Of a DNA stretch of 64,000 bases, positions 388 to 60,413 are shown piece by piece; within the stretch, counting starts at the first letter, position 1; every line of letters starts with the position of its first letter. A model generated the notes under the pieces. It was given only the letters and a program-made list of their open reading frames with translations, made no database searches and was not told the DNA's origin. Source of the DNA: a bacterium (GTDB taxonomy: Bacteria > Patescibacteriota > Minisyncoccia > Phycocordibacterales > UBA5272). The DNA lies in the NCBI GenBank assembly GCA_023267635.1, contig JAHFMX010000004.1:2837-66836 (forward strand), given 5' to 3'. The translations under genes were made by a program, and so were the position numbers.

Positions 388-1533
388 ATGGCACACGTAG
401 AGACATCAATTTTTTGGATAGAAACAGATAAGATCGTACCAAACCCGTATCAGCCACGACGGGAATTTGATGCTGATAGATTAAAAGAACTCTCAGATAG
501 TATTCGTCAGTACGGAGTGCTTCAGCCGCTTGTTGTTTCAAGAATGGAAACAAGTTTAGAAGATGGTGGAGTGAAGGTGGAGTATGAACTCATCGCAGGA
601 GAGCGACGACTTCGTGCTTCAAAAATGGCAGGGGTCACACAAGTACCAGTTGTTGTTCGTACAGGAGATGACAGTCGTGCAAAATTAGAACTCGCTATCA
701 TTGAAAACCTTCAGCGTGAAGATTTGAATGCTGTTGAGCGTGCACAATCATTCCAGCGTCTTGCTGATGAGTTTAAATTAAATTGGACAGAGGTAGGAAA
801 GAAGATGGGTAAGAGTCGAGAGTATGTTTCAAACACTGTGCGTATCCTAATGCTCCCTCAAGATATTTTGGATGCGCTTTCAAAAGGTCAAATAAGTGAA
901 GGTCATACCCGACCACTTCTTATGCTCATTGATCGACCACAGGAGCAGATGACTTTATTTAAAGAAATGATGGTGCGAAAGATGACGGTTCGTGAAGCAG
1001 AACAAATTGCACGACGTATCGCATTTGAAAAAGTTCGTAAAAAGGATTTGTTTATGACACCTGATGTTGTGGATATGGAAGAGAAGCTTGCTGAGACGCT
1101 TGGTACTCGTGTTCAGATTGAGCCACGCGAACGCGGAGGACGTATTTGGATCGATTATTTTTCTCACGAAGAACTATTAGCGCTTTCTATTGCGATACGA
1201 AAAGCAGGGGAAGCGAAAACACATAAGGGAATGTTTGATAGATTGAAAGAAGAGGATATGCAAACGCTTGCTGAGCAGTCAGGAAGTCCTCGCCATATTC
1301 GTCCAGTAACCGAAGAAGAATTAACACATTTACAGCCACAAGCAACGCAGGAAGAAGTTCGTGAATTAGTTGATACTGCGGCTACACAGGTTTCGAGTGA
1401 AGCAATTGAGGAAGATATCGAGGACACTATCTACGAGCCAACAGACACACTTGTGGACGACAGGTCAATTCAAGAAGTAAAAGAAGAGGAACAGAATGAT
1501 GATCTGTATAACGTGAAGAACTTCGCGATTTAG
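388..1533 (+). CDS. parB: ParB/Spo0J chromosome partitioning protein
   Basis: N-terminal ParB box (GERRLRASKMAG, VPVVV), HTH region, acidic C-terminal tail. Confidence 0.85.
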   Translation: MAHVETSIFWIETDKIVPNPYQPRREFDADRLKELSDSIRQYGVLQPLVVSRMETSLEDGGVKVEYELIAGERRLRASKMAGVTQVPVVVRTGDDSRAKLELAIIENLQREDLNAVERAQSFQRLADEFKLNWTEVGKKMGKSREYVSNTVRILMLPQDILDALSKGQISEGHTRPLLMLIDRPQEQMTLFKEMMVRKMTVREAEQIARRIAFEKVRKKDLFMTPDVVDMEEKLAETLGTRVQIEPRERGGRIWIDYFSHEELLALSIAIRKAGEAKTHKGMFDRLKEEDMQTLAEQSGSPRHIRPVTEEELTHLQPQATQEEVRELVDTAATQVSSEAIEEDIEDTIYEPTDTLVDDRSIQEVKEEEQNDDLYNVKNFAI

Positions 1534-1645: not shown

Positions 1646-1676
1646 ACTAAAAATCTTTCAAAGAGATAACAGTTAG

Positions 1677-1710
1677 AAAAAGACCGCAGCCGAAGGCTGC
1701 GGTCTTTTTC
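1677..1710. terminator. bidirectional rho-independent terminator
   Basis: aaaaaGACCGCAGCcgaagGCTGCGGTCtttttc; 9-bp GC stem flanked by A-run and T-run between convergent parB and rel. Confidence 0.7.
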
Positions 1711-1720
1711 TATTCCCTAA

Positions 1721-6414: not shown

Positions 6415-6492
6415 GTGCCCCGACGCGCAGGACTACGATTTCAAAAAATTGATTACAATTTAAGAAATCGGGAGTCTACGACGTCGGGGCAC
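6415..6492 (-). repeat. hairpin repeat family B, copy a (inverted relative to other copies)
   Basis: gtgccccgacg...cccgatttcttaaattgtaatcaa...gaaatcg...cgtcggggcac; terminal inverted repeats plus nested internal inverted repeats; homologous to 23663-23747 and 47191-47251. Confidence 0.55.
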
Positions 6493-8234: not shown

Positions 8235-8268
8235 AAAAGTGTAACCCGAGGGTTACACTTTTTAATTT
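8235..8268 (+). terminator. rho-independent terminator after SPFH gene
   Basis: AGTGTAACCCgagGGGTTACACTtttttaattt. Confidence 0.6.
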
Positions 8269-8270
8269 GT

Positions 8271-8305
8271 GCCCAGGGCGGGACTCGAACCCGCACGCTG
8301 TATAT
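8271..8305 (-). repeat. inverted 35-nt copy of the tRNA-Leu(TAA) 3' end (T-arm + acceptor); tRNA fragment, not a full gene
   Basis: revcomp = acagcgtgcgggttcgagtcccgccctgggcaca, identical to 8913-8947; no matching 5' acceptor strand or anticodon arm upstream. Confidence 0.5.
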
Positions 8306-8863: not shown

Positions 8864-8946
8864 GCCCGGGTGATGGAATGGTAGACATAGAGGACTTAAA
8901 ATCCTCGGCTGGTTACAGCGTGCGGGTTCGAGTCCCGCCCTGGGCA
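8864..8946 (+). tRNA. tRNA-Leu (TAA)
   Basis: Acceptor GCCCGGG/CCTGGGC, anticodon stem GAGGA/TCCTC with loop CTTAAAA, long variable arm, T-arm GCGGGTTCGAGTCCCGC. Confidence 0.85.
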
Positions 8947-8953
8947 CATGAAA

Positions 8954-8992
8954 ATAAAAATACCGAAATCATTTTTCGGTATTTTTATTTTT
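8954..8992. terminator. AT-rich rho-independent terminator after tRNA-Leu
   Basis: aaaaATACCGAAAtcattTTTCGGTATttttatttt. Confidence 0.5.
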
Positions 8993-8996
8993 ACAT

Positions 8997-9118
8997 GCAG
9001 GGCGGGACTCGAACCGCGGGCCGCAACCTGCGAAGAGCAGGTGTAGGTTTCGAGGCAAGCATGCCGAGAGGCGAGTCCCGCTGCCAAGCTTCGAATCTGC
9101 TGATTCGCCTGGGCACAT
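8997..9118. other. tRNA-Leu-derived structured element / decayed pseudo-tRNA (identity unresolved)
   Basis: Starts with inverted T-arm/acceptor fragment gcagggcgggactcgaacc (18/19 to tRNA-Leu 3' end) and ends with direct cgcctgggcaca; internal 10-bp long-range stem gcgggactcg (9002-9011) / cgagtcccgc (9074-9083); cannot be folded as a cloverleaf on either strand. Confidence 0.3.
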
Positions 9119-9795: not shown

Positions 9796-9995
9796 GATTA
9801 GTTCATACTACGGGAAAGGAGGAGGAATAACAAGAAAGGACTTGGTTGTAATATGTTTTGGAAAGGAGTCTTGGCTACAAGTTTTGTGTCGTCGCCACTC
9901 CACAAACTCGCAGCCCGCCCCTCGTGGTTTTGCTTGCTAGCAAAACATCACTGCGGGCATTCAAGTCCTTAAGTAAGACAAGTCATTGTCTTACT

Positions 9996-10050
9996 TCCCG
10001 GGCACAAATGAAAAAACACATCAAAGATGTGTTTTTTCATTTGTGCCCGG
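9996..10050. repeat. perfect 26-bp inverted repeat (hairpin) overlapping the 3' end of tRNA-Leu(TAG)
   Basis: cccgggcacaaatgaaaaaacacatc aaa gatgtgttttttcatttgtgcccggg; right arm includes the tRNA acceptor 3' strand; acts as terminator for the minus-strand tRNA. Confidence 0.65.
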
Positions 10051-10125
10051 GAAAGGACTTGAACCTTCATGAGTTGCCTCGCTTGCTCCTAAGGCAAGTG
10101 CGTCTACCAATTTCGCCACCCGGGC
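10044..10125 (-). tRNA. tRNA-Leu (TAG)
   Basis: Minus strand: GCCCGGGTGGCGAAATTGGTAGACGCA, anticodon stem CTTGC/GCAAG with loop CTTAGGA, long variable arm, T-arm. Confidence 0.85.
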
Positions 10126-16159: not shown

Positions 16160-16726
16160 ATGTACGAACAAAAAGATTTTGCACACCTGCTCTCGACTCC
16201 TGGATTTTCTGATGCGTTGCTCACTAATCACTTCACGCTCTATCAAGGGTATGTGAAGAATACCAACGCTCTTATCGAAAAGTTTAAGACACTTGAAATT
16301 GGAACTCCTGAATATGCAGAACTCCATCGTCGTTTTGGATGGGAATGGAACGGGATGCGACTTCATGAGCTTTATTTTGAGAACATGAAAAATGGTGGAG
16401 TGGCACTGACTGCAGGCTCTGAATTACAGAAAGTTATCGAATACGTATGGGGCTCATTTGAAAATTGGCAGAAAGAATTTATTGGTATCGGAACAATGCG
16501 TGGTATTGGATGGGTGGTCCTTGCGTATGATCCAGTAAAGAAAATGGTTTTCAACACATGGGTAAATGAACACAACGAAGGAAATCTAGCAGGAGCAGTT
16601 CCTGTTCTCGTTATGGATGTATTTGAACATGCATTTATGGTTGATTACGGACTCAAGCGCGCTGACTATATCACCGCGTTTATGAATGCAATTGATTGGA
16701 GTGTTGCAGAGAAGAGATTAGTTTAA
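16160..16726 (+). CDS. Fe/Mn superoxide dismutase family protein (divergent metal-ligand motifs)
   Basis: C-terminal DVFEHAFMVDY (cf DVWEHAYY); N-terminal helix region; first His pair only partly conserved (TNHFTLYQ). Confidence 0.7.
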   Translation: MYEQKDFAHLLSTPGFSDALLTNHFTLYQGYVKNTNALIEKFKTLEIGTPEYAELHRRFGWEWNGMRLHELYFENMKNGGVALTAGSELQKVIEYVWGSFENWQKEFIGIGTMRGIGWVVLAYDPVKKMVFNTWVNEHNEGNLAGAVPVLVMDVFEHAFMVDYGLKRADYITAFMNAIDWSVAEKRLV

Positions 16727-18020: not shown

Positions 18021-20726
18021 ATGCCTCCAAATTTCAACAACTTCACCACCAAAGCAAAGGAAGTGATTCGTCGGGCGCATGAACTTGCTATCGAGCGAGG
18101 ACAGAACCAGGTGAGTCCACTCCATCTTATGGGAGCTCTTCTTACACAGGAAGAGTCTCTTGTGCATGCTATTTTAGAAAAATTAGAAATCGATATTGTT
18201 CATCTTACTGACAGCATTGTGGACGCTATTGAAGTTCCTGGAGCTTCAGCTACGATGAGTCCGTCATATCAGATGTATCTCACACCTGAACTTGCAACAA
18301 CACTTGAAATGTCACTGAAGGTTGCTCAAACCCTTGGAGACGAATTTGTTTCAACGGAACACCTCTTCCTTTCATTACTTGAATCACAAGGACAAGTACG
18401 TGAAGTACTTGCACGTTTCCGAATCGACAAGGACGCGGCATATCATATATTAGAAGACCTTCGCTCACAGAATATTACTGAAGCGCAAGGCGGAAAGAAA
18501 AATAAAGCACTCGCGAAATACACACGTAATTTCACGGAGCTTGCACGTGCGGACAAATTAGATCCAGTAATCGGTCGCGATACAGAAATCATGCGTCTTA
18601 TGCAAATTCTTTCTCGTCGCACAAAGAATAATCCAATCCTCATTGGTGAAGCTGGTGTTGGAAAAACTGCAGTAGTAGAAGGACTCGCAATTCGTATGGC
18701 AAAAGGGGATGTTCCAGAGTCTCTTAAAGGTAAAGAACTCGTATCACTTGATCTTGGAATGCTTATTGCTGGAACAAAGTTCCGCGGAGAATTTGAAGAA
18801 CGACTCAAAGCAATCATGAAAGAAATTGAACGCTCAGAAGGAGGCATTATTCTTTTCATCGATGAGATTCACACCATTGTCGGAGCGGGGGCAACAGAAG
18901 GATCAGCGGACGCCGCAAACCTACTCAAGCCAGCACTTTCTCGTGGAGAGCTCAGAGCCATTGGAGCAACAACTATCAAGGAGTATCAGAAGCATATCGA
19001 AAAGGATCCAGCTCTTGCCCGTCGTTTCCAGCCAGTGTTTGTAGAAGAACCAACAGAGCTCGACACGCTTGCGATCTTACGTGGCCTCAAGGAAAAGTAT
19101 GAACTCTTCCACGGGGTACGTATTACAGATGATGCTCTTATCTCAGCGGTGAATCTTTCGACTCGATATATTACGTCACGATTCCTACCTGATAAGGCAA
19201 TTGACCTTATTGATGAGGCTGCCTCATCTCTTCGTATTGCTCTCGAGAATAAGCCTCCTGTGCTTGATGATGCTCATCGCAAGATCATGCGTTTAGAAAT
19301 CGAAAAAGAAGCGCTCACGAAGGAACTTGTTGCACATAAGGAAGACGATGATGCGCATGGAACAGGAACTGAAAAGCGAATTCATGCTATCGACGAAGAG
19401 ATTGCAAACGTAAAAGAGAAGACTCGCGAACTTGAGCTTAAGTGGAAAAACGAAAAGAAGACACTTAATGAAATTGGAGAACTTAAAAAGTCTCTTGAAA
19501 CCCTCCGTATTGAAGCAGAGAACGCAGAAATGCGCGCTGACCTTACTCGCGCTGCGGAGATTCGTTATGGACAAATTCCAGAGCTTACACGCGAACTTGG
19601 TGAACGTATGGAGAAACTAAAGAAACTTCAGAAGACACGCAGAATTCTACGTGAAGAAATTACAGAAGAAGATATTGCTTCTGTGGTGGCTCGTTGGACG
19701 GGTATTCCTGTTGTGAAAATGTTGGAAGAGGAAGAAGAAAAATTAGCGCACATGGAAGAAGGACTTGGAGAACGTGTGATTGGACAGCGTGATCCAATAG
19801 AAAAAATAAGTGGAGCAGTGCGCCGAAGTCGTGCGGGGATTAATGATCCATCACGCCCAATCGGTTCATTCCTATTTCTTGGTCCAACGGGTGTTGGAAA
19901 AACGGAACTTACAAAGGCGCTCGCAGAGTTTATGTTCAATGACGAGAAAGCGCTCATCAAAGTGGATATGAGTGAATACATGGAGAAGCATTCAACGTCA
20001 AAGTTGATCGGAAGTCCTCCAGGATATGTTGGATATGATGAATCAGGGCAACTTACTGAAGCAGTTCGCCATCGTCCGTACGCCGTTATCTTGTTTGATG
20101 AAGTTGAAAAGGCTCATCCTGAAGTATTCAACTTACTTCTTCAGGTTCTTGATGAAGGGCGACTTACAGACAGTAAGGGGCGCATTGTTAACTTCAAGAA
20201 CACGATTATTGTGATGACATCCAACATTGGAAGTCAGCACATCCAGAAGATGGAGCAGATTGGGTTTACTAATCACACAGAAGGAAGTGAGTACGCACAA
20301 GTGAAGGAACGAGTTATGGAATCTCTCAAAGAATTCTTTAAGCCTGAGTTCTTAAACCGCCTTGATGAAACAATTATCTTTGATGTGCTCGACAAGAGTC
20401 AGGTGAAGCAAATTGTAGGTCTACAGATGGCTCAAATTGCAAAGCGCCTACAGGAAAAAGATATTATTCTTGAAACAACAGAAGAAGCTCTTGCTCACAT
20501 TGCAGAGAAATCGTTTGACCCACATTATGGAGCGCGACCTATCAAGCGATTTATTCAGACTCATATTTTGAATCAGGTTGCATCTCTCATGCTTTCAAAG
20601 AAATTTATGAAAGGGGGAATAGCTGCAGTAGCACTCGATAAAAAGGGAGACGTTATTGTTGAAGCAAAGAAACCAAAGAAGATTCCAAGTCCAATATCCA
20701 AAAAGGATCTTGTAACAAAGAAGTAA
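18021..20726 (+). CDS. clpB: ATP-dependent chaperone ClpB
   Basis: Clp N-domain; two AAA+ modules ([18 protein letters not shown]) with long middle coiled-coil; 901 aa. Confidence 0.9.
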
Positions 20727-20735
20727 AGATCTACA

Positions 20736-20895
20736 AAATCATCCCATCTACTTTGTCGCTACGGGATTTTTCTCAGTCAATGTATATGGAAATGTTCCTT
20801 TGCTTGCTAGCTCCGGAACTCTTTGTCGCTCTTCGCTCCTAGATCCTTCTAAAAATCCCTAAGCTTCGCGTACCTGGAACAATTTTCTAGATTTT
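20736..20895 (+). repeat. 3'-UTR repeat family A, copy 2 (composite, with nested ~60-nt insert)
   Basis: aaaatcatcccatctactttgtcgctacgggatttttctcagtcaatgta...ccctaagcttcgcgtacctgg; insert duplicates ctttgtcgct and carries ttgcttgctagctc. Confidence 0.6.
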
Positions 20896-23638: not shown

Positions 23639-23662
23639 GAGATAGTTAGGGGTTGCAGTTAG

Positions 23663-23747
23663 GGTGTTAGAGAAAAGAGTGCGCCGTATGGTTCCCGATT
23701 TCTTAGATTGTAATCAATCTTTTGAAATCGCAATACTCTGGAGTGCG
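23663..23747 (+). repeat. hairpin repeat family B, copy b
   Basis: agaaaagagtgcgc cgtatggtt cccgatttcttagattgtaatcaatcttttgaaatcgcaatact ctggagtgcgcactctttt; nested inverted repeats; between convergent genes. Confidence 0.55.
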
Positions 23748-23803
23748 CACTCTTTTCTTATTGGGTATTGATTATTAAGTTATTGAATATTTACTCCTAA
23801 CCC

Positions 23804-24265
23804 TTAACTACTAACTCCTGACTTGGATTCGTGTTCCTCGGTGATCACTTCAACGTCTTCTTGAATTTCATCCACATCCTCCTGAATCTCATCAATATCT
23901 TCTTGCATTTCTTCCACGTCTTCAGCGATCTCCTCAACGTCCTCAGCAATCTCTTCGACATCTTCTGCAATTTCTTCAACGTCTTCTTGAATTTCATCAA
24001 TATCTTTTTCAACGTTGGCTAGCGCTCGCGCCTGATGGTTAACACTCATTTGAATGAAGATAGAGAGATAAATTGCTTCAAGAGATACGACTGTTGTTAA
24101 TACGAGGAGAACTCGATCTAGGCCAACACCCATAAGCACAAGCGTAAAAGCGCCTATAAATAAAAAGGTGTGAACAATGACAGACCAAATCGATCCTGTC
24201 CACTTGGTGATTTTAAGCGCAAGGATTTCTAGGTCATTTATTGGGGTGTTTTCATTTTTTTTCAT
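23804..24265 (-). CDS. DUF1003-like membrane protein with acidic heptad-repeat tail
   Basis: Two TM helices then (EDVEEIA)n repeats. Confidence 0.5.
   Translation of the reverse strand: MKKNENTPINDLEILALKITKWTGSIWSVIVHTFLFIGAFTLVLMGVGLDRVLLVLTTVVSLEAIYLSIFIQMSVNHQARALANVEKDIDEIQEDVEEIAEDVEEIAEDVEEIAEDVEEMQEDIDEIQEDVDEIQEDVEVITEEHESKSGVSS
23839..24010. repeat. coding 21-nt tandem repeat (about 8 units)
   Basis: catccacatcctcctgaatct / catcaatatcttcttgcattt / cttccacgtcttcagcgatct ...; encodes EDVEEIA heptads. Confidence 0.7.
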
Positions 24266-25470: not shown

Positions 25471-25507
25471 TACAGTACACCAACACAATCTTCTTTGTTG
25501 TGGGACC

Positions 25508-25580
25508 CAGTTTTCTCAGTCAATGTACTATTCGTACACCTCCTTCAAAAACTTTCCCACGCCTCGAATCTTGTGCCGTT
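25508..25580 (+). repeat. 3'-UTR repeat family A, copy 4 (5'-truncated)
   Basis: cagttttctcagtcaatgtactattcgtacacctccttcaaaaactttcccacgcctcgaatcttg; shares tttctcagtcaatgta + hairpin + ttcaaaaa...c.tcg with copies 1-3. Confidence 0.5.
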
Positions 25581-25613
25581 ATACTGATTAGTTTTCTTCT
25601 GGGGATTTTTAAA

Positions 25614-25649
25614 TAAAGAGCGGCGCCTACGGCGCCGCTCTTTATTTTT
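25614..25649 (+). terminator. strong rho-independent terminator
   Basis: AAAGAGCGGCGCCtacGGCGCCGCTCTTTattttta; 13-bp stem. Confidence 0.7.
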
Positions 25650-47190: not shown

Positions 47191-47251
47191 GTGTGCTCCC
47201 GATTTCTTAGACTGTAATTCAGTCCTTTGAAATCGCAGTCCTGTGTTACAC
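47191..47251 (+). repeat. hairpin repeat family B, copy c
   Basis: gtgtgct cccgatttcttagactgtaattcagtcctttgaaatcgcagtcct gtgttacac; ends 10 nt before smc ATG. Confidence 0.5.
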
Positions 47252-47261
47252 TTTTTATACT

Positions 47262-49490
47262 ATGCGTTTGTCGCACATCACCATCCAAGGGTTTAAGTCC
47301 TTCGCCAAAAAAACCACACTTGATGTTACTCATCAAGTAACTGGTGTTGTTGGTCCAAATGGTTCTGGTAAATCAAACATCGCAGAAGCAATTCGTTTCG
47401 TTCTCGGCGAACAGTCAATGAAATCCATGCGTGGAAAGATCGGAGCTGATGTGATATTTAAAGGTTCAGAGCATTTATCTCCACTTTCACGCGCTTCCGT
47501 TATGATGGTGATCGATAATAAGGATAAAGGAGATGTAGCGCACGCTTCAGAAACACTTGCTCCGTATTTGGTATATGACGAACTTACGTTATCCCGTGTT
47601 ATTTATGCTGACGGTACGAGTGATTATATGCTCAATGACGCAAAAATCCGCTTAAAGGACGTACAGGAATTATTATCGTTTGCTGGTATTGGAGGAAGTG
47701 CCCACACTATTATCAATCAAGGTGAGGCGGATAGAATTTTACTTGCTAATCCTCGAGACAGAAAAGAAGTATTAGAGGATGCTCTTGGGTTACGTATGTA
47801 TCATATGCGTTTAAACGAAAGTAAGCGCAAACTTGAGCGCGTGAAAACACATGTGCATGAAGTTGAACTGTTGCGAAAAGAAATCAAGCCGCACCTCGAT
47901 CATTTGAAGCGACAGGTTGATAAAATTGAAGCGGCAAGTGAAGAGCGGAATAAATTACATGCACTTCTTATTGCATATCTAACTCGTGAAGAAAACGAGT
48001 TGCAGGCGTTGGATGAACGTATCCGTGAAGAAGGGTCTTCAGCTTCTCTTATTCTCATCACTGATTCTATTCAGAAAGAATTACGTGTACTTAAAGATAG
48101 TACTTCTACAACGCAGGTAACATCTACTTCCGAAAAGCACACACTTCAAACTGAAATGCGTGGACTCTTAGAACGTCGTGATCAGGTAACAAAGACGCTC
48201 GGGAGACTAGAAGCAGAAAAAGCATATTTAGAAAAAGAATTTTCACGGGATGTAGAAGGTAAGGCTGTTACTTTGACCCATGAGAAATGGACAACTACTC
48301 AAACCCTTTTTTCTCATGAAATTGGAGCGCTTGAATCTGCGCTCACCGCTTCTGATATTCAAAAGGCAAGCACACACGTAGAGGGACTTAAACATGAGGT
48401 GAATGAGTTTTTTGGAGCGCAAGACAAAGGAGACGTAACTAAAAAAGAATCATTGAAGCGGGACATTGAAACAGTAACGCAAGCTATTGTAGAACATGAG
48501 CAGAAGGAGCAAACTCTTTCTCGAGATGTTGTAGTGCTTCAAGAAAAGATAGATGCAATTGATGTTCATGCCCAAACGTCTCTCCAGTCTCGTCACGAAG
48601 AAGAAAAGAAGGTAATGACACTCCAGAGTAAGTTGCGTGAACTTGAAAGTACTATTGCATTACGAAGACAAGAAGAAGGAGAGTTTTCTCTTCGTAAGCA
48701 ACACTTTGAAGCTCTGCGAGAGGAGGGTGTGCTTATTGTGGGGCGAGTTGTGTTGGAATATAAGGATCATAGTCCTGAAGAGCGATTTCGTGACACTCCA
48801 AAACCAGATATCCTGCGTGCTATTGAACGTTGTAAACTCCGCATTGAAGAAGCAGGGGTTCCTAATCGTGAAGAAGTTATTGCAGAGTATGCTTCAACTC
48901 GTGAACGTGATGAATATCTTGCTCGAGAACTTACGGATATTAAAGATAGTGAAGAAAAGTTACTCACACTCATTGATGAACTCACCACATCTCTAGAAGA
49001 ACGTTTTTCAAAAGGGGTAGAAGAAGTGTCTAAGGTATTCAGTGAATTTTTTGGAGAGGTGTTCGTGGGAGGAAAAGGAAAGCTTGTGCTTTTACAGTTA
49101 ACCAAGATAGATGACGAAGGAAATCAAACGATTGAACAGGGAATAGACATTGACGTTTCGCTTCCAAATAAAAAAGTGAAAGAGATAACTATGTTCTCGG
49201 GCGGAGAGCGTGCGCTCGTGTCCATCGCCCTTCTTTTTGCAATGTCATCAATTACCCCACCTCCATTTATGGTTCTCGATGAAACAGATGCGCCGCTCGA
49301 TGAATCAAACGCTCGTAAGTATGGAGTGATGTTGAAGCGACTAGCAGAAAAGAGTAAGTTGCTCGTGATTACACACAATCGAGAGACCATGAATCACTGT
49401 GATATGTTGTACGGCGTAACGATTGGAGTAGACGGAGGAAGTAAATTACTCTCAATTAATTTTAAAGAGGCAGAGAATTACAGTAAGTAA
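47262..49490 (+). CDS. smc: short SMC-family ATPase (no obvious hinge)
   Basis: N-terminal IQGFKSF...GPNGSGKSN Walker A; C-terminal signature LSGGERALVSIALLFAM and Walker B LDETDAPLD; ~450 aa coiled region; 742 aa. Confidence 0.7.
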   Translation: MRLSHITIQGFKSFAKKTTLDVTHQVTGVVGPNGSGKSNIAEAIRFVLGEQSMKSMRGKIGADVIFKGSEHLSPLSRASVMMVIDNKDKGDVAHASETLAPYLVYDELTLSRVIYADGTSDYMLNDAKIRLKDVQELLSFAGIGGSAHTIINQGEADRILLANPRDRKEVLEDALGLRMYHMRLNESKRKLERVKTHVHEVELLRKEIKPHLDHLKRQVDKIEAASEERNKLHALLIAYLTREENELQALDERIREEGSSASLILITDSIQKELRVLKDSTSTTQVTSTSEKHTLQTEMRGLLERRDQVTKTLGRLEAEKAYLEKEFSRDVEGKAVTLTHEKWTTTQTLFSHEIGALESALTASDIQKASTHVEGLKHEVNEFFGAQDKGDVTKKESLKRDIETVTQAIVEHEQKEQTLSRDVVVLQEKIDAIDVHAQTSLQSRHEEEKKVMTLQSKLRELESTIALRRQEEGEFSLRKQHFEALREEGVLIVGRVVLEYKDHSPEERFRDTPKPDILRAIERCKLRIEEAGVPNREEVIAEYASTRERDEYLARELTDIKDSEEKLLTLIDELTTSLEERFSKGVEEVSKVFSEFFGEVFVGGKGKLVLLQLTKIDDEGNQTIEQGIDIDVSLPNKKVKEITMFSGGERALVSIALLFAMSSITPPPFMVLDETDAPLDESNARKYGVMLKRLAEKSKLLVITHNRETMNHCDMLYGVTIGVDGGSKLLSINFKEAENYSK

Positions 49491-49514: not shown

Positions 49515-51449
49515 ATGGAACGTCTGTTTACAGGGGCAATCAGCCTCACTTCTAAGAGAGATGGATATGTACGGGTTACAGAGCTTGAGCACGATGGTGC
49601 GATTTTTGTTGACCATAGTCATCTTGGAACAGCGCTTCACCAAGATATTGTTCAGGTGGAATTACTTGGTAAAAAGCAGAATGTAAAAGGTGAACAAGAA
49701 CTCTACGGAAAAGTATTATCTATTATTGAACGTGGACGCAAAGGATACGCTGGCATCATAGAAGAAGACGCAGGGCATTACTTCCTCGTTCCTCAGGACA
49801 AGAAAATGTACACCGATATCATGATTGGTAAAGATGACCTTAATGGTGCTGAAGTTGGTATGAAGGTTATAGCAAGCATTGACGAATGGACTGATCAAAA
49901 GAAATCTCCAATTGGACGCGTGACGAATGTTCTTGGATATCCAGGAGACAACAATGCAGAAATGTTGGCCTACGCTCTTGAACGTGGTTTTAGTGCTGAA
50001 CATACTGATGCCGTGAATAAAGAAGCTGATGAAATAAAAGCGCGAGGGATTACAGAAGAAGATAAAGCGAATCGAAGAGATTTCAGAACGACTCCAACCT
50101 TTACCATTGACCCAATCGACGCTAAAGACTTCGACGACGCTATCTCATTTAAGAAGCTTGATAATGGACACTATGAAGTTGGTATTCATATTGCTGACGT
50201 ATCGTACTATGTTCGTCCAGGCATGGCACTTGATGAAGAAGGAATCGCTCGCGAGACTTCTGTGTATCTCGTAGACCGTGTAATCCCTATGCTTCCAGAA
50301 GTGCTTTCAAACGATTTGTGTTCTTTGGTACAGGGTGAGGATCGTCTTGTGATGTCTGCGGTGCTTGAGCTTGATGATGAAGGAAAAGTTCATGGAGAAT
50401 GGTTTGGACGCTCTCTTATTAATTCTCATCGAAGATATTCATACGAAGATGCGCAAGTAACGCTCGATACAGGAACAGGAGATTTCTACGAAGAGCTCAC
50501 TATTTTAAATAAGATTGCAAAGAATTTAACAAAAGCACGTTTTGAAGGTGGGGCGCTTTCACTTGAAACTGAAGAGGTTAAATTTAAGTTAGACGAAAAG
50601 GGTGTGCCAATCGATGTGTATGTGAAGTCACGCGGTGATACTCACAAGCTGATTGAAGAGTACATGCTTTTAGCTAACAAGCATGTAAGTAAGTTCATCA
50701 CTGAAAAACAAGAAGAGAAAAACGGACGATCAATCTGTGTGTATCGTATTCACGATAAGCCAGATGCTGACAAGATGCATGATCTTGATCTCTATATTCG
50801 TGGACTCGGGTTCCATGTTCGTTTTCTGGACGGACTCATTCCTTCACAAGACCTCAACGACCTTCTTCGCAAGATGGCAGATAGACCTGAGAAACAACTA
50901 TTGCAAGTTCACATTACTCGATCAATGCAAAAAGCTGTCTATAGTACAAAAAATGTTGGTCACTATGGACTAGCATTTGATTATTATTCTCACTTCACCT
51001 CTCCAATTCGTCGATACCCAGATGTGCTTACACACAGACTCCTTATGCGAGTACTTTCTGAGGATTATCCTAAAGAAGAAGAACGTGGATTGTTTGATTC
51101 ATTGTGTGCTAAGGCAAGTCGTCGTGAAAAAGAAGCATCAGACGCTGAGCGTGGAAGTATTAAGTACAAGCAGGTGGAATATATGTCGTACCGCATTGGG
51201 CAAGAATTCGACGGTATGGTGTCTGGTGTATCAGAATGGGGGATTTATGTAGAAGAGAAGAAAAGTAAGTGTGAAGGCATGATTCGCTTGCGTGATCTCG
51301 GGGATGATTTCTATAACTTTGATCAAAAGGGTGGACGAGTGTTTGGAGAGCGAACAGGAATGGAGTGGAAAATTGGAACACCAGTACGAATGCGTGTAAA
51401 GAACGCAAATCTTGATTTGCGAGTGATTGATTACGAACTAGTACAGTAG
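49515..51449 (+). CDS. rnr: ribonuclease R (RNB family 3'-5' exoribonuclease)
   Basis: Cold-shock/OB N-terminus; RNB catalytic region DPIDAKDFDDAIS; C-terminal S1. Confidence 0.85.
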   Translation: MERLFTGAISLTSKRDGYVRVTELEHDGAIFVDHSHLGTALHQDIVQVELLGKKQNVKGEQELYGKVLSIIERGRKGYAGIIEEDAGHYFLVPQDKKMYTDIMIGKDDLNGAEVGMKVIASIDEWTDQKKSPIGRVTNVLGYPGDNNAEMLAYALERGFSAEHTDAVNKEADEIKARGITEEDKANRRDFRTTPTFTIDPIDAKDFDDAISFKKLDNGHYEVGIHIADVSYYVRPGMALDEEGIARETSVYLVDRVIPMLPEVLSNDLCSLVQGEDRLVMSAVLELDDEGKVHGEWFGRSLINSHRRYSYEDAQVTLDTGTGDFYEELTILNKIAKNLTKARFEGGALSLETEEVKFKLDEKGVPIDVYVKSRGDTHKLIEEYMLLANKHVSKFITEKQEEKNGRSICVYRIHDKPDADKMHDLDLYIRGLGFHVRFLDGLIPSQDLNDLLRKMADRPEKQLLQVHITRSMQKAVYSTKNVGHYGLAFDYYSHFTSPIRRYPDVLTHRLLMRVLSEDYPKEEERGLFDSLCAKASRREKEASDAERGSIKYKQVEYMSYRIGQEFDGMVSGVSEWGIYVEEKKSKCEGMIRLRDLGDDFYNFDQKGGRVFGERTGMEWKIGTPVRMRVKNANLDLRVIDYELVQ

Positions 51450-52306: not shown

Positions 52307-52624
52307 ATGAAAGACCAAGAATTTGTTGAATATGTTGTAAAGGCACTTGTAGAGAATCAAGATGAGGTAAAAGTAGAACGACGAGTGGATGAGATGGGTG
52401 TTTTGATTACACTTGATGTGGCTGCGGAAGATATGGGAAAAATTATCGGGCGTGATGGAGCAACCGCAAAGGCGCTCCGAACATTGCTCCGTGTTGTTGG
52501 TATGAAGAACAATGCTCGAGTGAATTTGAAAATTAACGAACCAGAAGGACGCACGGATGGACAAGTTCCACGGTATGATACCTCAGATGTGGACGCAGTG
52601 ATGAATGACTTGAAGTCTTTGTAG
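52307..52624 (+). CDS. KH-domain RNA-binding protein (YlqC/UPF0109)
   Basis: KH motif GKIIGRDGATAKALR; rpsP-KH-trmD synteny. Confidence 0.75.
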   Translation: MKDQEFVEYVVKALVENQDEVKVERRVDEMGVLITLDVAAEDMGKIIGRDGATAKALRTLLRVVGMKNNARVNLKINEPEGRTDGQVPRYDTSDVDAVMNDLKSL

Positions 52625-52628
52625 TAAA

Positions 52629-52730
52629 ACTATTCCACCTACTTTGTCGCTACGGAATTTTTCTCAGTCAACGTAGAGGTGCCTACGTCTCTTTCAAAAA
52701 TTCCTAAGCTTCGCGTATCTGAAGCAGTTT
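52629..52730 (+). repeat. 3'-UTR repeat family A, copy 3
   Basis: ctattccacctactttgtcgctacggaatttttctcagtcaacgtagaggtgcctacgtct...ttcaaaaattcctaagcttcgcgtatctg. Confidence 0.6.
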
Positions 52731-52740
52731 TCCAAGAAAG

Positions 52741-53940: not shown

Positions 53941-54013
53941 GCCAAGATAGCTCAGTTGGTAGAGCACTTCCATGGTAAGGAAGAGGTCGCGGGTTCAATT
54001 CCCGCTCTTGGCT
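53941..54013 (+). tRNA. tRNA-Thr (GGT)
   Basis: Acceptor GCCAAGA/TCTTGGC, anticodon stem CTTCC/GGAAG with loop ATGGTAA, T-arm GCGGGTTCAATTCCCGC. Confidence 0.85.
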
Positions 54014-54062
54014 CAGAAATTAAAAAGCACCGGTAAGGTGTTTTTTAATTTCTGAGCCAAGA
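54006..54062. repeat. perfect 21-bp inverted repeat (terminator hairpin) incorporating the tRNA-Thr 3' end
   Basis: tcttggctcagaaattaaaaa gcaccggtaaggtg ttttttaatttctgagccaaga. Confidence 0.65.
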
Positions 54063-54182
54063 GCTTTGAAAGGGGTCGGGGAAACGATAGTTTCCCCGTA
54101 GAGGAGAGTAGTGAGTGTACTCGCGAACGTTGAGAACCGTGGGTTCTCAAAACCGAAGCTTAGCGATAGCGTAGCGGAGGTT

Positions 54183-58757: not shown

Positions 58758-60413
58758 ATGACGCAGAAAACCGCTCTCGATATTCTTAAACTTGGACATA
58801 CGGTATTTCTCACTGGTGCAGCGGGAGCTGGTAAAAGTTACGCTCTGCGTGAATATATTACGTACCTTCGTAAACACGGTATTAAATTCGCTGTTACCGC
58901 TTCCACTGGAATTGCTTCAACACACATCGGTGGAACAACCATTCACGCATGGAGTGGTCTTGGTATTAAACAAAAACTCACCGCGTATGATTTGGATGAA
59001 TTAGAAGAGAAACCAAACGTGTACAAACGATGGAATGATACACAAGTGCTCATCATCGATGAAATCTCGATGCTTCACGCTTCACTTGTGGATATGTTGG
59101 ATAAAGCAGGGAAACATCTACGAAGAAGTGATAAACCGTTCGGTGGACTACAAGTAGTATTCACGGGGGATTTCTTTCAGCTTCCACCAGTAGTACGTAA
59201 TGGAAATGAATATGAAAGTACGGACGTGTTCGCGTTTATGTCTAAAGCATGGAAAGAAGCCAAGCCTGTAGTCTGCTATTTAACAGAACAGTTCCGCCAA
59301 GAAGATGATACGCTCACGAATATTTTAAATGCTATCCGTTCTGGTGAAGTAGAAGAGGATCATTACCTGACACTTAAAGAATCGAGTAACACGCCACACA
59401 CGGATGATCATATAAAACTCTACACGCACAATGAGAATGTGGATCTGATTAATAAGAAAGCCTTTGACGCGCTCGAGGGTGAAGTGAAGAGATTCGACAT
59501 GGTAACAAAAGGGAAAGGTCCTGTACTCGCGTCATTGAAGAATAATTGTTTGGCGGATGAAATATTGGAACTCAAAATCGGAGCGAAAGTTATTTGTATC
59601 AAGAATGATGCGGAGCGAAAGTATGTGAATGGCTCTATGGGAATCGTGGTTGATTTTGAAAAGGATAACAGCCCAGTGATTGCACTTCAAACAGGCAAAC
59701 GAGTGGTTATGAAAGCCGACACTTGGCGTGTGGAAGAGGACGGAAAAGTAAAAGCTGAGATATCGCAGTTACCTATTAAATTAGCCTGGGCAATCACGGT
59801 TCACAAGAGCCAAGGAATGACCCTTGATAGGGCACAAATTGACCTCAGCCGTGCGTTTGCTTCAGGGCAGGGATATGTTGCTCTTTCTCGATTAAAGAGC
59901 ATGGAAGGGCTGCATTTGGTTGGCTTCAATCCACAAGCACTTCAAATCTCGGAAGAGGTTCGAGAAGCAGATTATACTTTCCGCAGCAAGAGTGAACAGG
60001 CAGAATATGCCCTTGATAAATATACTGAAGACGATTTGAAAGTGCTCCATGAAAAGTTCCTCACGGAGAAAGGAGGAACGCTCGTAGAGTTGAGTGATTC
60101 TGAGGCGGATGAGATTCAAGAGAAGACACTCACCCATACGGTAACGCAAGAGATGTTAAAGATCGGCCTTACACTTCCAGAAATTGCAGAGCAGAGAAAT
60201 CTCTCAGTGGATACTATTATTGGACATATTGAGAAGCTGGTAGAAATGAAAGAAGAAGTGGTGTTGGACAAAGTGTTACCTCCTAAAAAAGATGTGACCG
60301 CAATCAAGAAAGCTTTTAAGACTCTAGAGACCACAAAGCTCACCCCGGTCTTCGATGAACTGGCTGGAAAATACACCTTTCACCAAATACGTTTGGTTCG
60401 AGCCACATTATAG
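58758..60413 (+). CDS. Pif1/RecD-family ATP-dependent DNA helicase with C-terminal HTH
   Basis: Walker A GAAGAGKSY; motif II LIIDEISM; SF1B motifs TVHKSQGMT; C-terminal helix-turn-helix region. Confidence 0.8.
   Translation: MTQKTALDILKLGHTVFLTGAAGAGKSYALREYITYLRKHGIKFAVTASTGIASTHIGGTTIHAWSGLGIKQKLTAYDLDELEEKPNVYKRWNDTQVLIIDEISMLHASLVDMLDKAGKHLRRSDKPFGGLQVVFTGDFFQLPPVVRNGNEYESTDVFAFMSKAWKEAKPVVCYLTEQFRQEDDTLTNILNAIRSGEVEEDHYLTLKESSNTPHTDDHIKLYTHNENVDLINKKAFDALEGEVKRFDMVTKGKGPVLASLKNNCLADEILELKIGAKVICIKNDAERKYVNGSMGIVVDFEKDNSPVIALQTGKRVVMKADTWRVEEDGKVKAEISQLPIKLAWAITVHKSQGMTLDRAQIDLSRAFASGQGYVALSRLKSMEGLHLVGFNPQALQISEEVREADYTFRSKSEQAEYALDKYTEDDLKVLHEKFLTEKGGTLVELSDSEADEIQEKTLTHTVTQEMLKIGLTLPEIAEQRNLSVDTIIGHIEKLVEMKEEVVLDKVLPPKKDVTAIKKAFKTLETTKLTPVFDELAGKYTFHQIRLVRATL

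Follow-up and report, generated by a model that had tools for sequence, protein, structure and literature searches.

A small dispersed hairpin element occupies the tips of host terminators and other palindromes in CPR bacteria

By definition, a REP sequence carries a GT(A/G)G head ahead of its palindrome (PMC2817692). The repeat family described here, family B, lies in a 64-kb window (the whole stretch of 64,000 nt of CPR DNA that was analyzed) and resembles the REP/REPIN-RAYT systems in consisting of short, strand-specific, non-autonomous imperfect palindromes that are present in multiple intergenic copies, often at gene 3' ends, and whose stems are kept through compensatory changes. In about half of its copies, a G(T/A)AGG-type motif that recalls the REP head is found just 5' of the hairpin. 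However, REPs have a simple GC-rich stem, form inverted pairs (BIME/REPIN), and reach hundreds of copies per genome, whereas family B has an AT-rich core with two nested helices and conserved internal loops, occurs singly or in direct tandem, and amounts to ~3 copies per 64 kb in the part of CPR sequence that was seen. Furthermore, family B sits inside another hairpin, GTAGG is also the loop of host terminators, and neither the window nor the surroundings of any copy yielded a RAYT gene.

IS200/IS605 elements and their miniature derivatives (PATEs) are without terminal inverted repeats and give no clear target duplication; they insert 3' of a short motif, and the feature that is recognized is a hairpin on one strand. 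Family B resembles them in having no inverted ends of its own and no clear target duplication; its position 3' of a short motif and the probable recognition of a hairpin on one strand would fit as well. In contrast to their two different subterminal hairpins, it has one main hairpin with an optional hairpin of 3-4 bp (P5), and in place of the strict tetra- or pentanucleotide target of IS608-type elements it has a loose one (..GG), with no TnpA found in the window or beside any copy.

Host palindromes receive other elements as well: IS1397 and ISKpn1 (IS3 family) and members of the IS110 family insert into REP/BIME palindromes, and group IIC introns insert beside terminator stem-loops. Family B also ends in or beside host palindrome tips, but it is ~50 nt long and non-coding, whereas these elements are autonomous, span 1-2 kb, and bring their own enzyme. 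Classical MITEs (Correia/CREE, RUP, ERIC, Nezha), some of which act as terminators, are likewise small, non-coding, intergenic, polymorphic among strains, and able to form long hairpins. They carry terminal inverted repeats of their own and target-site duplications, while family B has the arms of host hairpins and a duplication of at most 4 nt at one site; with neither element-borne terminal inverted repeats nor a fixed-length target duplication, a classical MITE was rejected. Finally, chloroplast non-coding DNA is well known for small inversions in which a hairpin loop flips between perfect inverted repeats. Family B shares with them an exact reverse-complementation between arms that recurs independently in close relatives, although this parallel covers the flipping only and not the origin or spread of the core. 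In CPR/Patescibacteria, genomes are small and compact, and mobile DNA is usually described as scarce.

The 51-nt core of family B is present three times in the window (copies a, b, and c), each time with the common stretch CCGATTTCTTA..TTTGAAATCG (6436-6471 on the minus strand; 23695-23730 and 47199-47235 on the plus strand). Copy c differs from copies a and b by an additional apical-loop base and by one A.C mismatch. The consensus given in the initial annotation, searched with up to 3 mismatches, matched twice versus 0.00 matches expected, and the pattern CGATTTC-N18-34-GAAATCG matched three times, also versus 0.00 expected. A covariance model built from 20 copies (R1) assigned 79.8 bits to copy b, 75.6 to copy a, and 68.1 to copy c, with a next-best match of 16.9 bits elsewhere in the window and at most 10.4 bits on the opposite strand. 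From this gap in score, we conclude that the window holds exactly three copies and that the strand of the element is defined. Coordinates, chance tests, and model agree with the three places reported in the initial annotation, whose account of the gene context and intergenic siting was also correct for every copy: copy a is found 4 nt downstream of the stop codon of a 248-aa gene, with the dprA start 50 nt beyond the copy, convergent genes flank copy b, and copy c lies 10 nt ahead of the start of an SMC-like gene, past a separate terminator. The features at the three sites are listed below; L0xx labels denote the loci or relatives compared (CPR MAGs and metagenome contigs).

6428-6478, minus strand: copy a core; P2-P3-P4 with CC bulge, TT/TTT internal loop, and TAAT apical loop.
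6426-6481, minus strand: copy a, whole inter-arm segment, in element orientation TCGTAGA-CTCC..core..GTAGTCCTGCG, from alignment to relatives.
6415-6425, unstranded: copy a, putative host terminator arm GTGCCCCGACG, also conserved in L054 (empty site) and L057 (flipped site).
6482-6492, unstranded: copy a, other putative host terminator arm CGTCGGGGCAC; minus-strand hairpin, then TTTT.
23688-23738, plus strand: copy b core, of the subfamily with P2 = GTT/AAT; near-identical to L007, L018, and L048.
23692-23744, plus strand: copy b, segment missing from the L063 hairpin (TTCC..core..CAAT plus P5).
23735-23744, plus strand: copy b P5 mini-hairpin, ACTC-TG-GAGT.
23670-23684, unstranded: copy b, 5' putative host terminator arm GAGAAAAGAGTGCGC.
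23685-23691, unstranded: copy b loop remnant CGTATGG, directly after the 5' host arm.
23745-23759, unstranded: copy b, 3' putative host terminator arm GCGCACTCTTTTCTT.
47192-47243, plus strand: copy c core; P4 = AGACTG/CAGTCC with one A.C mismatch and a 5-nt apical loop.
47196-47241, plus strand: copy c, minimal insert CTCC..CAGTCC (46 nt), with TGTG at 47192-47195 and 47242-47245.
47191-47241, plus strand: copy c, alternative insert (51 nt) without target duplication, from the empty-site comparison.

The core consists of the nested helices P2, P3, and P4, with a constant asymmetric TT/TTT internal loop, a CC bulge, and a TANT apical loop. The unit opens with CTCC, continues through P3 (CGATTTC/GAAATCG) and P4, which is variable in sequence, always paired, and capped by the TANT loop, and runs via GCAGT to a 3' end that is either CCTG or the mini-hairpin P5. 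P5 (3-4 bp) is found in one subfamily only and covaries among copies. The internal inverted repeats noted previously, cgatttc/gaaatcg and agattg/caatct, are correct and correspond to P3 and P4; copy a has a rare P4 variant, AAATTG/CAATTT, which is present in inverted form in L057/L058. Using RNA parameters, copy a folds at -45.2 kcal/mol (z -10.2), copy b at -39.4 (z -5.4), and copy c at only -17.6 (z -2.7). Using DNA parameters, the cores alone gave -8.4 to -10.7 kcal/mol (z -4.8 to -7.5), and the core folds as single-stranded DNA.

Across 42 distinct copies, 98.6% of the cells were paired, and double changes were present in 9 of the 16 pairs; slid pairing registers gave 44% paired or less. 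Compensated cells numbered 38 versus 5.0 +/- 2.0 after shuffling, and none of 500 shuffles reached 38. Judged by these compensatory changes relative to the shuffles, the structure is under selection. Within the stems, G.T pairs numbered 44, versus 4 for A.C. One strand (CTCC..CAGT) holds both the conserved unpaired bases and the G.T pairs, and scores ~80 bits versus ~10 for the other.

In all, 51 copies of the core were found in CPR MAGs and metagenomes (14 CPR MAGs and 21 metagenome contigs), and a 40-kb contig of L001/L006 contains 4 copies versus 3 in the 64-kb window. These 51 copies, together with the compensatory changes and the presence/absence patterns described below, bear out the original view of a dispersed intergenic hairpin repeat family of the REP/MITE sort. 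All 30 copies that were checked are intergenic, and their orientation relative to flanking genes, for which the initial annotation had considered a bias, is mixed. Most copies are located at gene 3' ends; downstream of secA the element is kept in three genomes. P3 and the unpaired bases are strongly conserved among hosts whose ClpB is only ~60% identical. Copies are otherwise single, with no inverted pairs, and the doublets (L040, L052, L010) are all direct tandems. Nested and tandem copies were observed at L015:1342, L040, and L052. A TIGR/CRISPR-like array was rejected, as the copies are dispersed, direct doublets are few (two or three), and nothing matches. When IMG/VR viral contigs were searched with a degenerate core pattern, 9 loci were returned, all with 19.9 bits or less by the covariance model; these are chance matches, and a phage origin was rejected. 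The element has so far been seen only among CPR bacteria. We do not claim that it spans CPR classes: a 'Saccharibacteria' label proved unreliable, since SecA of L018 shares 92% identity with its counterpart in a 'Parcubacteria' MAG.

The copies had initially been described as ~80-nt elements bounded by terminal inverted repeats. This proved incorrect, given that the outer stems of copies a and b are present without the core in L054 and L063, and that at copy c only AGTGT/ACACT (5 bp) pairs, no better than shuffled flanks. The outer stem reported at copy b is real, at 15 bp longer than in any shuffle, although its true limits (23670-23684 and 23745-23759) are slightly wider than those originally given. 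Only 20 of the 51 copies have an uninterrupted outer stem of at least 11 bp, and about half have no stem above chance. Because the outer stems of copies a and b exist in relatives without the core, and because copy c and about half of the copies are without one, the mobile unit is the inner segment of ~47-62 nt and not an 80-nt MITE. Judged from sequence, copies a and b have the arms of ordinary host terminators as their outer stems: these arms have the features of intrinsic terminators (a GC-rich stem and a T/U tract), and CCGTAGG or CCGAAGG loops are common in plain terminators, both in the window and in relatives without the element. With their triloops, the empty hairpins have folding energies of -20 to -31 kcal/mol, compared to about -45 kcal/mol for the filled ones. 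Three unoccupied sites in the window are relevant here.

1674-1712, plus strand: plain putative host terminator with a CCGAAGG loop (-31.0 kcal/mol, CC-GAA-GG triloop), unoccupied and of the same kind as the sites of copies a and b.
25611-25647, minus strand: plain putative host terminator AAATAAAGAGCGGCG-CCGTAGG-CGCCGCTCTTTATTT, with arms that nearly match those around the filled copy of L033.
8996-9055, plus strand: unoccupied homologue of the L003/L004 core context, ..CGAACCGCGGGC|CGCAAC..GTAGGTTTCGAG; the insertion point is the mini-palindrome GCGG-G-CCGC.

The L033 arms and the terminator at 25611 lie at different loci, and orthology between them was rejected. The core itself is not an intrinsic terminator; it is AT-rich, conserved in sequence, missing from empty terminators, and present at non-terminator sites.

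Empty sites in relatives were found for all three copies. At the position of copy a, L054 reads GTGCCCGACG-CCTACGA-CGTCGGGCAC, that is, 10-bp arms around a 7-nt spacer, while in L057/L058 the inter-arm segment is reverse-complemented. The hairpin of L063 is empty (GCGCGC-CGTAG-GCGCGC) compared to the filled form at copy b (GTGCGC-CGTATGG-insert-GCGCAC), and L061 is missing the entire copy b module. Clean empty sites of copy c are present in L065 (96% protein identity), L066 (88%), and L067 (82%), where the sequence ..TTTTTTAT TGTG TTACAC.. contains a mini-palindrome (GTGT-T-ACAC). The empty-site spacers are 3-5 nt for copy b and 1 nt for copy c. All three copies are thus presence/absence polymorphisms, and family B is gained and lost at orthologous sites. 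Within ~147 kb of close relatives, the covariance model detected the core only at L057 and in L059, the latter being another assembly of the genome from which the window comes. Copy c, the most degenerate of the three, is probably the latest gain. Comparison of filled and empty sites revealed no target duplication at copies a and b, nor was a repeated overlap sequence found flanking them; copy c is ambiguous, with a 4-nt duplication of TGTG possible. Family B lacks inverted ends that belong to the element itself, and a clear target duplication is likewise missing.

Exact reverse-complementation of the inter-arm segment between relatives was observed at three orthologous loci. L033 and L035 share 88 nt that are 100% identical yet inverted, between flanks that are 92.7% identical, and the segment is flipped in L007/L048 relative to L018, in which SecA is 92% identical. 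The identity of L033 and L035 beside flanks diverged by 7%, together with retention after secA, fits either purifying selection, implying function, or recent movement.

At its 5' end, the element is joined at the same base in 51 of 51 copies, just before C/TTCC. G(T/A)AGG or GTAGA directly precedes CTCC in about half of the 51 copies, and the other flanks include TGTG, AATG, ATTG, GACG, and TAAG; the last base is G in ~90% of copies, with no fixed motif. The G(T/A)AGG head is also the ordinary loop of empty host terminators, and it may represent a target, a footprint, or a coincidence. The element is situated at the tips of pre-existing palindromes, which are mostly intrinsic terminators with a CC-GNA-GG triloop, and mini-palindromes such as GTGT-T-ACAC are occupied as well.

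Family B is best seen as a small selfish repeat that is closest in kind to REP, and not as a transposon with inverted ends of its own. On balance, we lean toward a non-autonomous, strand-specific hairpin element at palindrome tips that would be moved in trans as single-stranded DNA, in the manner of REP and IS200/IS605. It would travel as a folded single DNA strand, and an enzyme acting in trans, a step that we infer, would read the hairpin and its asymmetric loops; the likeliest candidate would be an HUH/Y1 transposase as in REP-RAYT and IS200/IS605. One-strand cut and paste would place the element 3' of a short motif with no duplication. The terminator tip would be either a preferred target or a place where insertion is harmless, since the host arms would still close and the U-tract would be kept. 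Flipping would follow secondarily, when the perfect host arms recombine or a template switch occurs between them.

The cognate transposase, which the initial annotation had suggested looking for, was not found. No Y1/HUH transposase, RAYT, or other recombinase was detected in the window or beside any copy (64 kb here, pieces of up to 14 kb elsewhere). Searches of 600 kb by tblastn with IS608 TnpA, the E. coli RAYT, and an IS200 consensus (approximate queries) returned nothing, the best E value being 0.31. Pfam analysis of 27 window ORFs yielded no transposase and only housekeeping genes, as did clustering of the 172 ORFs located up to 3 kb from copies. A literature search yielded no paper with the core sequence and nothing relevant on CPR repeats, MITEs, or REPs.

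An element of ~50 nt that is gained, lost, and flipped among relatives with 80-96% protein identity would survive by hiding where extra DNA does little harm, at the tip of a terminator hairpin. The empty, filled, and flipped alleles of one site offer a natural system for studying target choice by hairpin-recognizing enzymes, and the R1 model could serve as a marker for strain tracking and for horizontal exchange in uncultured CPR lineages. For annotation, our results are a warning that 'long terminators' or 'MITEs with inverted repeats' in such genomes can be a host hairpin plus a guest. The mobilizing enzyme, if found, may be a compact nuclease or transposase specific for single-stranded DNA hairpins.

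Selection on the structure could also mean that the core is a functional RNA module, either a protein-binding or processing hairpin in terminators and 3' UTRs or a small RNA, that selection maintains and that would have spread through a benefit to the host, with mobility being secondary. We regard this as unlikely, but it has a real chance of being correct. Most copies, at gene 3' ends, would be transcribed; covariation of this type is typical for structured RNAs; G.T pairs occur on one strand; P3 and the unpaired bases are conserved across the hosts with diverged ClpB; and both the retention after secA in three genomes and the L033/L035 identity despite diverged flanks would be expected. However, orientation to the upstream gene is mixed and flips among close relatives, so the mRNA contains the sense strand in some genomes but the antisense strand in others. 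The closest relatives are without copies b and c, and copy c, probably the newest gain, is the most degenerate. Rfam searches of the window and six loci at gathering thresholds returned only tRNAs, and a relaxed search of copy b gave GAIT as its best match (E 0.58), at 17.4 bits where the threshold is 37; a known RNA family was rejected. No promoter-like site was found over copies a or b in a scan of 5-25 kb, a scan that, for terminators, considered loops of 3-8 nt only and to which filled hairpins are invisible.

We give a small chance to a new, CPR-specific class of mobile hairpins within hairpins. Such an element would either be read as a folded single strand by enzymes of a family with no transposition role assigned so far, or exist at the RNA level and be copied back to DNA, and the tip of any palindrome, whether of a terminator or of a tRNA arm, would serve as its target. 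If true, such a class would drive terminator turnover, tRNA-gene fragmentation, and local inversions in reduced genomes.

The failure to find a transposase in the searches above is consistent with spread by no dedicated enzyme at all, through ectopic gene conversion between similar terminator hairpins or, during replication, through template switching at the tips of palindromes, with the flips arising by the same route. Host terminators with near-identical arms and loops (AAAGAGCGGCGCC-GTA-GG..) are present at non-orthologous sites in different genomes and would provide homology for conversion, and exact inter-arm inversion is the expected product of recombination between inverted arms. Still, the chance that conversion explains the family is slim. 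The arms of copies a and c and of L003/4 (GTGCCCCGACG; AGTGT; GCGGG) are unrelated to those of other copies, leaving no flanking homology there; the 5' junction at the same base in 51 of 51 copies is unexpected; and the asymmetric loops, being conserved, and the stems, being covariant, point to a strand that is recognized in its folded state, whereas conversion would require no such recognition.

It is very unlikely that a miniature integrative element, mobilized by a tyrosine or serine recombinase that uses terminator or tRNA stem-loops as pseudo-att sites, has the core as its end or as its recombinase-binding hairpin. Several copies do abut tRNA fragments that are cut in a loop, namely the D-loop (L009, L010), the anticodon loop (L016), or the T-loop (L003, L004, L053), and L010 contains 150-nt tandem units in each of which the initial 16 nt of the tRNA recur together with the region upstream of it, a pattern that successive integrations would yield. 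The empty site of copy a, with its 10-bp arms and 7-nt spacer, would suit a recombinase as well, but the spacers at copies b (3-5 nt) and c (1 nt) would not. Copies a and b are without a repeated overlap sequence, no integrase gene was found in the window or beside any copy, and most copies have no tRNA fragment. An integron attC site was rejected since the pattern is reversed, the center being conserved and the outer stem variable or absent.

Virtually nothing speaks for chance or convergent bidirectional terminators, the fallback of the initial annotation, apart from the A-tract/stem/T-tract hairpins that enclose copies a and b: zero copies were expected by chance, the same 51-nt core recurs in 51 places including other CPR genomes, empty versions of the same terminators are predicted to work without it, and copy c lies outside any terminator, so that the chance counts, the empty/filled comparisons, and this recurrence refute it.

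Simple insertion does not fully explain the tRNA fragments that abut copies at L009, L010, L016, L003/4, and L053. An intact tRNA is located near the copy in L009 and L016, and a tRNA gene is also near L003/L004. A tRNA intron or tRNA-like gene was rejected, as ARAGORN called ordinary tRNAs only and the other half is absent after the fragments. At L010, only the start of the tRNA is visible at the edge of the locus and ARAGORN calls none; in L010 alone, the D-arm continues ~45 nt downstream.

The initial annotation placed three copies of a hairpin element, Family B, in the window, and this observation was borne out. The copies lie where it put them, and in the window the chance expectation is zero both for its consensus and for the bare arms of helix P3. 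The shared core CCGATTTCTTA..TTTGAAATCG was located by sequence match:

6436-6471, minus strand, core of copy a
23695-23730, plus strand, core of copy b
47199-47235, plus strand, core of copy c, apical loop one base longer

A covariance model of the core built from 20 copies (R1) scored copy b at 79.8, copy a at 75.6 and copy c at 68.1 bits. The next-best match in the window reached 16.9 bits and the reverse strand at most 10.4 bits; this gap and the weak reverse strand indicate that there are exactly three copies and that the element strand is defined. Copies a and b form the long hairpins proposed for the whole element (-45.2 and -39.4 kcal/mol), whereas copy c folds weakly (-17.6 kcal/mol). 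The claim that copies are intergenic held for all 30 that were checked.

Pattern scans with exact P3 ends yielded 23 loci from species-representative genomes and 21 from metagenomes, on which R1 found 51 copies (42 distinct), including diverged copies beyond the reach of the P3 pattern. In element orientation, the 5' end is a variable leader, often CCG(T/A)AGG. P2 has 3 bp (GCT/AGT or GTT/AAT) and is followed by a CC bulge facing a single C. P3 has 7 bp (CGATTTC/GAAATCG; diverged variants CGACTTT/AAAGTCG and CAATTTC/GAAATTG), and an asymmetric internal loop, TT facing TTT, joins it to P4, 6 bp of free sequence (variants AAGCTG/CAGCTT, AATCCG/CGGATT, ATGTGG/CCACAT and AGTTTC/GAAACT) with the apical loop TANT. 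Two subfamilies are distinguished 3' of GCAGT: one ends in CCTG and the other has a mini-hairpin, P5 (ACTC-NN-GAGT, ACTT-AT-AAGT, ACC-TTYA-GGT or ACCC-TTA-GGGT).

On an alignment fitted to R1, with most P3 ends fixed by the search pattern, 98.6% of stem cells were paired, both sides had changed in 9 of the 16 pairs, compensated cells numbered 38 as against 5.0 +/- 2.0 in shuffles, and slid registers were at most 44% paired. The structure of the core is under selection. G.T outnumbered A.C in the stems by 44 to 4 (9 to 4 once the fixed G.T pair of P2 is left out), an excess that identifies CTCC..CAGT as the folding strand. Under DNA parameters, too, the core alone folds (-8.4 to -10.7 kcal/mol).

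All genome matches to the core came from CPR/Patescibacteria MAGs, apart from one chance match in Halobacillus (23.9 bits). The 14 host MAGs are labelled Paceibacterota, Parcubacteria, Nomurabacteria or Saccharibacteria; the last label is unreliable, because the SecA proteins of locus L018 and of a 'Parcubacteria' MAG share 92% identity. Hosts are deeply diverged (ClpB 63% identical, other proteins about 57-62%), and the window's own proteins place it in Paceibacterota. The core was absent from IMG/VR and from the searchable literature, and no Rfam family matched it. Over about 147 kb of window relatives, R1 found it only at L057 and at L059, which is another assembly of the genome that the window comes from.

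At site a, a relative with an 86% identical 248-aa protein (L054) shares the flanks, between which it has a plain terminator, GTGCCCGACG-CCTACGA-CGTCGGGCAC-TTTT, which lacks the core and folds at -20.2 kcal/mol. Relatives L057/L058 (82%) share the arms and the same rare P4 variant, with the 56 nt between the arms reverse-complemented and 4 differences. At site b, the spacer of L061/L062 (93%) is unrelated, is 55 nt long and contains a simple terminator, and L063 (79%) has the same outer flanks and a homologous hairpin, GCGCGCC-TAC-GGCGCGC, without the core. Site c is empty in L065 (96%), L066 (88%) and L067 (82%), and the junction is clean: ..TTTTTTAT-TGTG-TTACAC.. when empty and ..TTTTTTAG-TGTG-[CTCC..CAGTCC]-TGTG-TTACAC.. 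in the window. The target here is a mini-palindrome, GTGT-T-ACAC, and no terminator; judged from these junctions, the insert may be either 46 nt with a 4-nt duplication or 51 nt without one. Hairpins are more stable when filled than when empty. In 20 of the 51 copies the outer stem runs uninterrupted for 11-22 bp, and an A-tract and a T-tract usually accompany it; about half of the copies have no outer stem above chance. The outer stems belong to the host and not to the element. The terminal inverted repeats had been taken as the bounds of the element, a reading that we abandon, as the arms of L054 and L063 stand without a core and so many copies have no outer stem.

The terminator loops CCGTAGG, CCGAAGG, TCGTAGG and CTGTAGG, which are GNA triloops closed by CC/GG, are very common in plain terminators of the window (1674-1712, 25611-25647) and of element-free relatives. 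In every filled terminator such a heptamer lies 5' of the core, which begins directly after ..GG. At L003/L004 the context is ..CGAACCGCGGGC[core..]CCGCAGC.., and comparison with the empty homologue at window 8996-9055 puts the insertion in the middle of GCGG-G-CCGC. One rule fits this locus and sites a, b and c: insertion at a palindrome tip, on a single strand and to the 3' side of a G-rich end, with no consistent duplication.

Fragments of tRNA genes ending in a loop adjoin the core in several loci (D-loop in L009 and L010, anticodon loop in L016, T-loop in L003, L004 and L053). L009 and L016 have an intact tRNA near the core, and L003/L004 likewise a tRNA gene; in L010 a tRNA start at the locus edge is all that can be seen, and ARAGORN calls no tRNA. 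Extended to tRNA arms, the palindrome-tip rule explains these cases in part, and simple insertion is not the full explanation. In L010:1-360 (reverse strand), units of roughly 150 nt are repeated in tandem next to the intact-looking tRNA start. Each unit contains the 16 nt with which a tRNA begins (GGGGTATCGTCTAATG), the core, about 45 nt on GTAGGAC.. (the rest of the D-arm) and the tRNA upstream region. The array looks like a tRNA copy broken in the D-loop and amplified afterwards. At L015:1342-1440 a diverged full core and then the 3' half of a canonical core lie within one outer-arm pair (GCGACCGCC..GGCGGTCGC), either a nested insertion or a recombinant of two subfamilies.

Terminators of this lineage are stereotyped, with an A-tract, a perfect GC-rich stem, a CC-GNA-GG triloop and a T-tract:

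1674-1712 and 25611-25647, window
16205-16243, L054
8764-8814 and 16226-16264, L063
8795-8831 and 13676-13708, L064

Near-identical arms (AAAGAGCGGCGCC..) occur at non-orthologous loci and across different genomes (L033, L037, L051, L064), so the terminator hairpins themselves may be a dispersed family. Short-period TTAG/GTAAT-type repeats lie 5' outside many hairpins and their CTAA-rich reverse complement 3' (for example AGTTAGGGGTTGCAGTTAGGGTGTTAGAG ... CTCCTAACCCTTAACTACTAACTCC and ACCAATTACTAATTACGAATAACT), with stop codons on both strands in several frames:

23640-23669 and 23795-23825, window
flanks of L011, L015, L033, L035, L048, L007 and L001

The window and L063 have the whole repeat-plus-hairpin module, which L061, a closer relative, lacks.

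The inter-arm segment was exactly inverted in three independent orthologous comparisons: window versus L057/L058; L033 versus L035, in which 88 nt are 100% identical in reverse between flanks 92.7% identical; and L007/L048 versus L018, downstream of secA. Orientation was kept between L007 and L048 (76% nucleotide identity). The flips would most simply arise by recombination or template switching between perfect arms. The suggested check for orientation bias against flanking genes gave a mixed result, with 12 copies co-oriented and 6 opposed where the neighbours agree in direction. The coding strand switches at about 14.0-14.9 kb, from mostly minus before about 14.6 kb to mostly plus after, and parB lies at 388-1533. 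The switch could mark a replication origin, for which GC skew gives no clear support; if the switch is an origin, the CTCC..CAGT strand of all three cores would lie on the lagging-strand template.

Family B is mobile, with both gain and loss, and often inverted; it is non-coding, strand-specific and structure-constrained, has no ends of its own and sits at palindrome tips. We rate it a CPR-specific hairpin-in-hairpin repeat. The definition of REPs comprises a GT(A/G)G head, a palindrome and a rayt gene flanked by REPs (PMC2817692). Family B is most like REP and IS200-type hairpin elements in its working, and it lands like IS1397 and IS110-family elements, which target host palindromes. It differs from MITEs in having neither inverted ends of its own nor a fixed duplication, so that of the initial reading the REP-like hairpin repeat stands and the MITE does not. 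Unlike REPINs/BIMEs it has no inverted pairs, and unlike IS200/IS605 derivatives it has one hairpin and a loose target.

In REP-RAYT and IS200/IS605 systems, Y1/HUH enzymes recognise an imperfect hairpin in one of the strands and insert 3' of a short motif without duplication. We infer that a folded single DNA strand of Family B is recognised by a trans-acting enzyme most like these. A covarying P4 with invariant P3, bulge and loops would be expected if a protein reads the shape together with a few bases. Terminator tips may be true targets or simply places where insertion is tolerated, which it would be because the arms and U-tract stay untouched. The weak point is the missing mobilising enzyme: in the small part of each genome that was covered, none was found among window ORFs (Pfam on 27 ORFs), by tblastn with TnpA/RAYT queries over 600 kb, or among the recurrent neighbours of copies (SecA, Mur ligase, S1 protein and peptidoglycan-binding proteins).

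The main rival is that the core is a functional RNA. Orientation flips and the absence of copies from the closest relatives speak against this, but strong conservation, the G.T asymmetry between strands, long retention after secA and the identity of L033 and L035 although their flanks diverged all suit it. Spread without an enzyme, by conversion between similar terminators, would draw on the arm sequences that terminators share; at sites a, c and L003/L004, however, the arms are unique. Spacer lengths are unfit for a miniature integrative element with stem-loops as att sites, and the repeated crossover sequence is missing, although tRNA fragments beside the core and the L010 array (150-nt unit) favor it. 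The fallback of converged bidirectional terminators is excluded. Family B would carry more weight if its mobilising activity proves new or if an RNA function is found.

A second dispersed repeat of about 130 nt, probably Family A of the initial annotation, lies just downstream of plus-strand genes:

1514-1643, window
20711-20887, window, with a 48-nt insertion
about 25490-25600, window
52602-52732, window
850-945 and 1020-1180, L002, reverse strand

In this repeat CTACTTTGTCGCTACGGAATTTTTCTCAGTCA is conserved and the hairpin ATGTAC-N-GTACAT covaries; it also contains ..CTAAGCTTCGCGTA.. and has no Rfam match. Its end is fused directly to the Family B core in L002 and L019 (..ACAAAGTAGA|CTCCCGATTTC). 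The window also carries inverted copies of tRNA 3' ends:

8268-8302, matching the 3'-terminal 35 nt of tRNA-Leu(taa) (8864-8947) exactly in reverse complement
8944-8998
8986-9117, mosaic of tRNA-like pieces, uncalled by ARAGORN
9995-10053
54004-54064

The terminators that follow tRNA-Leu(taa), tRNA-Leu(tag) and tRNA-Thr have perfect stems of 25-28 bp, to which the acceptor 3' end of the tRNA contributes. Beside tRNA-Gln lies a gene (58758-60413) for a PIF1-like helicase whose C terminus carries an HTH_40 domain; in L008, a homologue with 62% identity is 1.5 kb away from a copy of the core. A 21-nt periodic repeat of at least 7 units (23835-24030) within a DUF948 gene (23804-24265, minus strand) encodes a heptad-like repeat, and homologues of the protein vary from 136 to 215 aa. 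Two further genes are:

47262-49490, 'smc', 742-aa SMC_N/AAA protein
49515-51449, RNase R, following 'smc'

The length of the SMC-like protein is conserved (741-795 aa across more than 100 Paceibacterota homologues), which indicates a short SMC-like ATPase and no truncated SMC.
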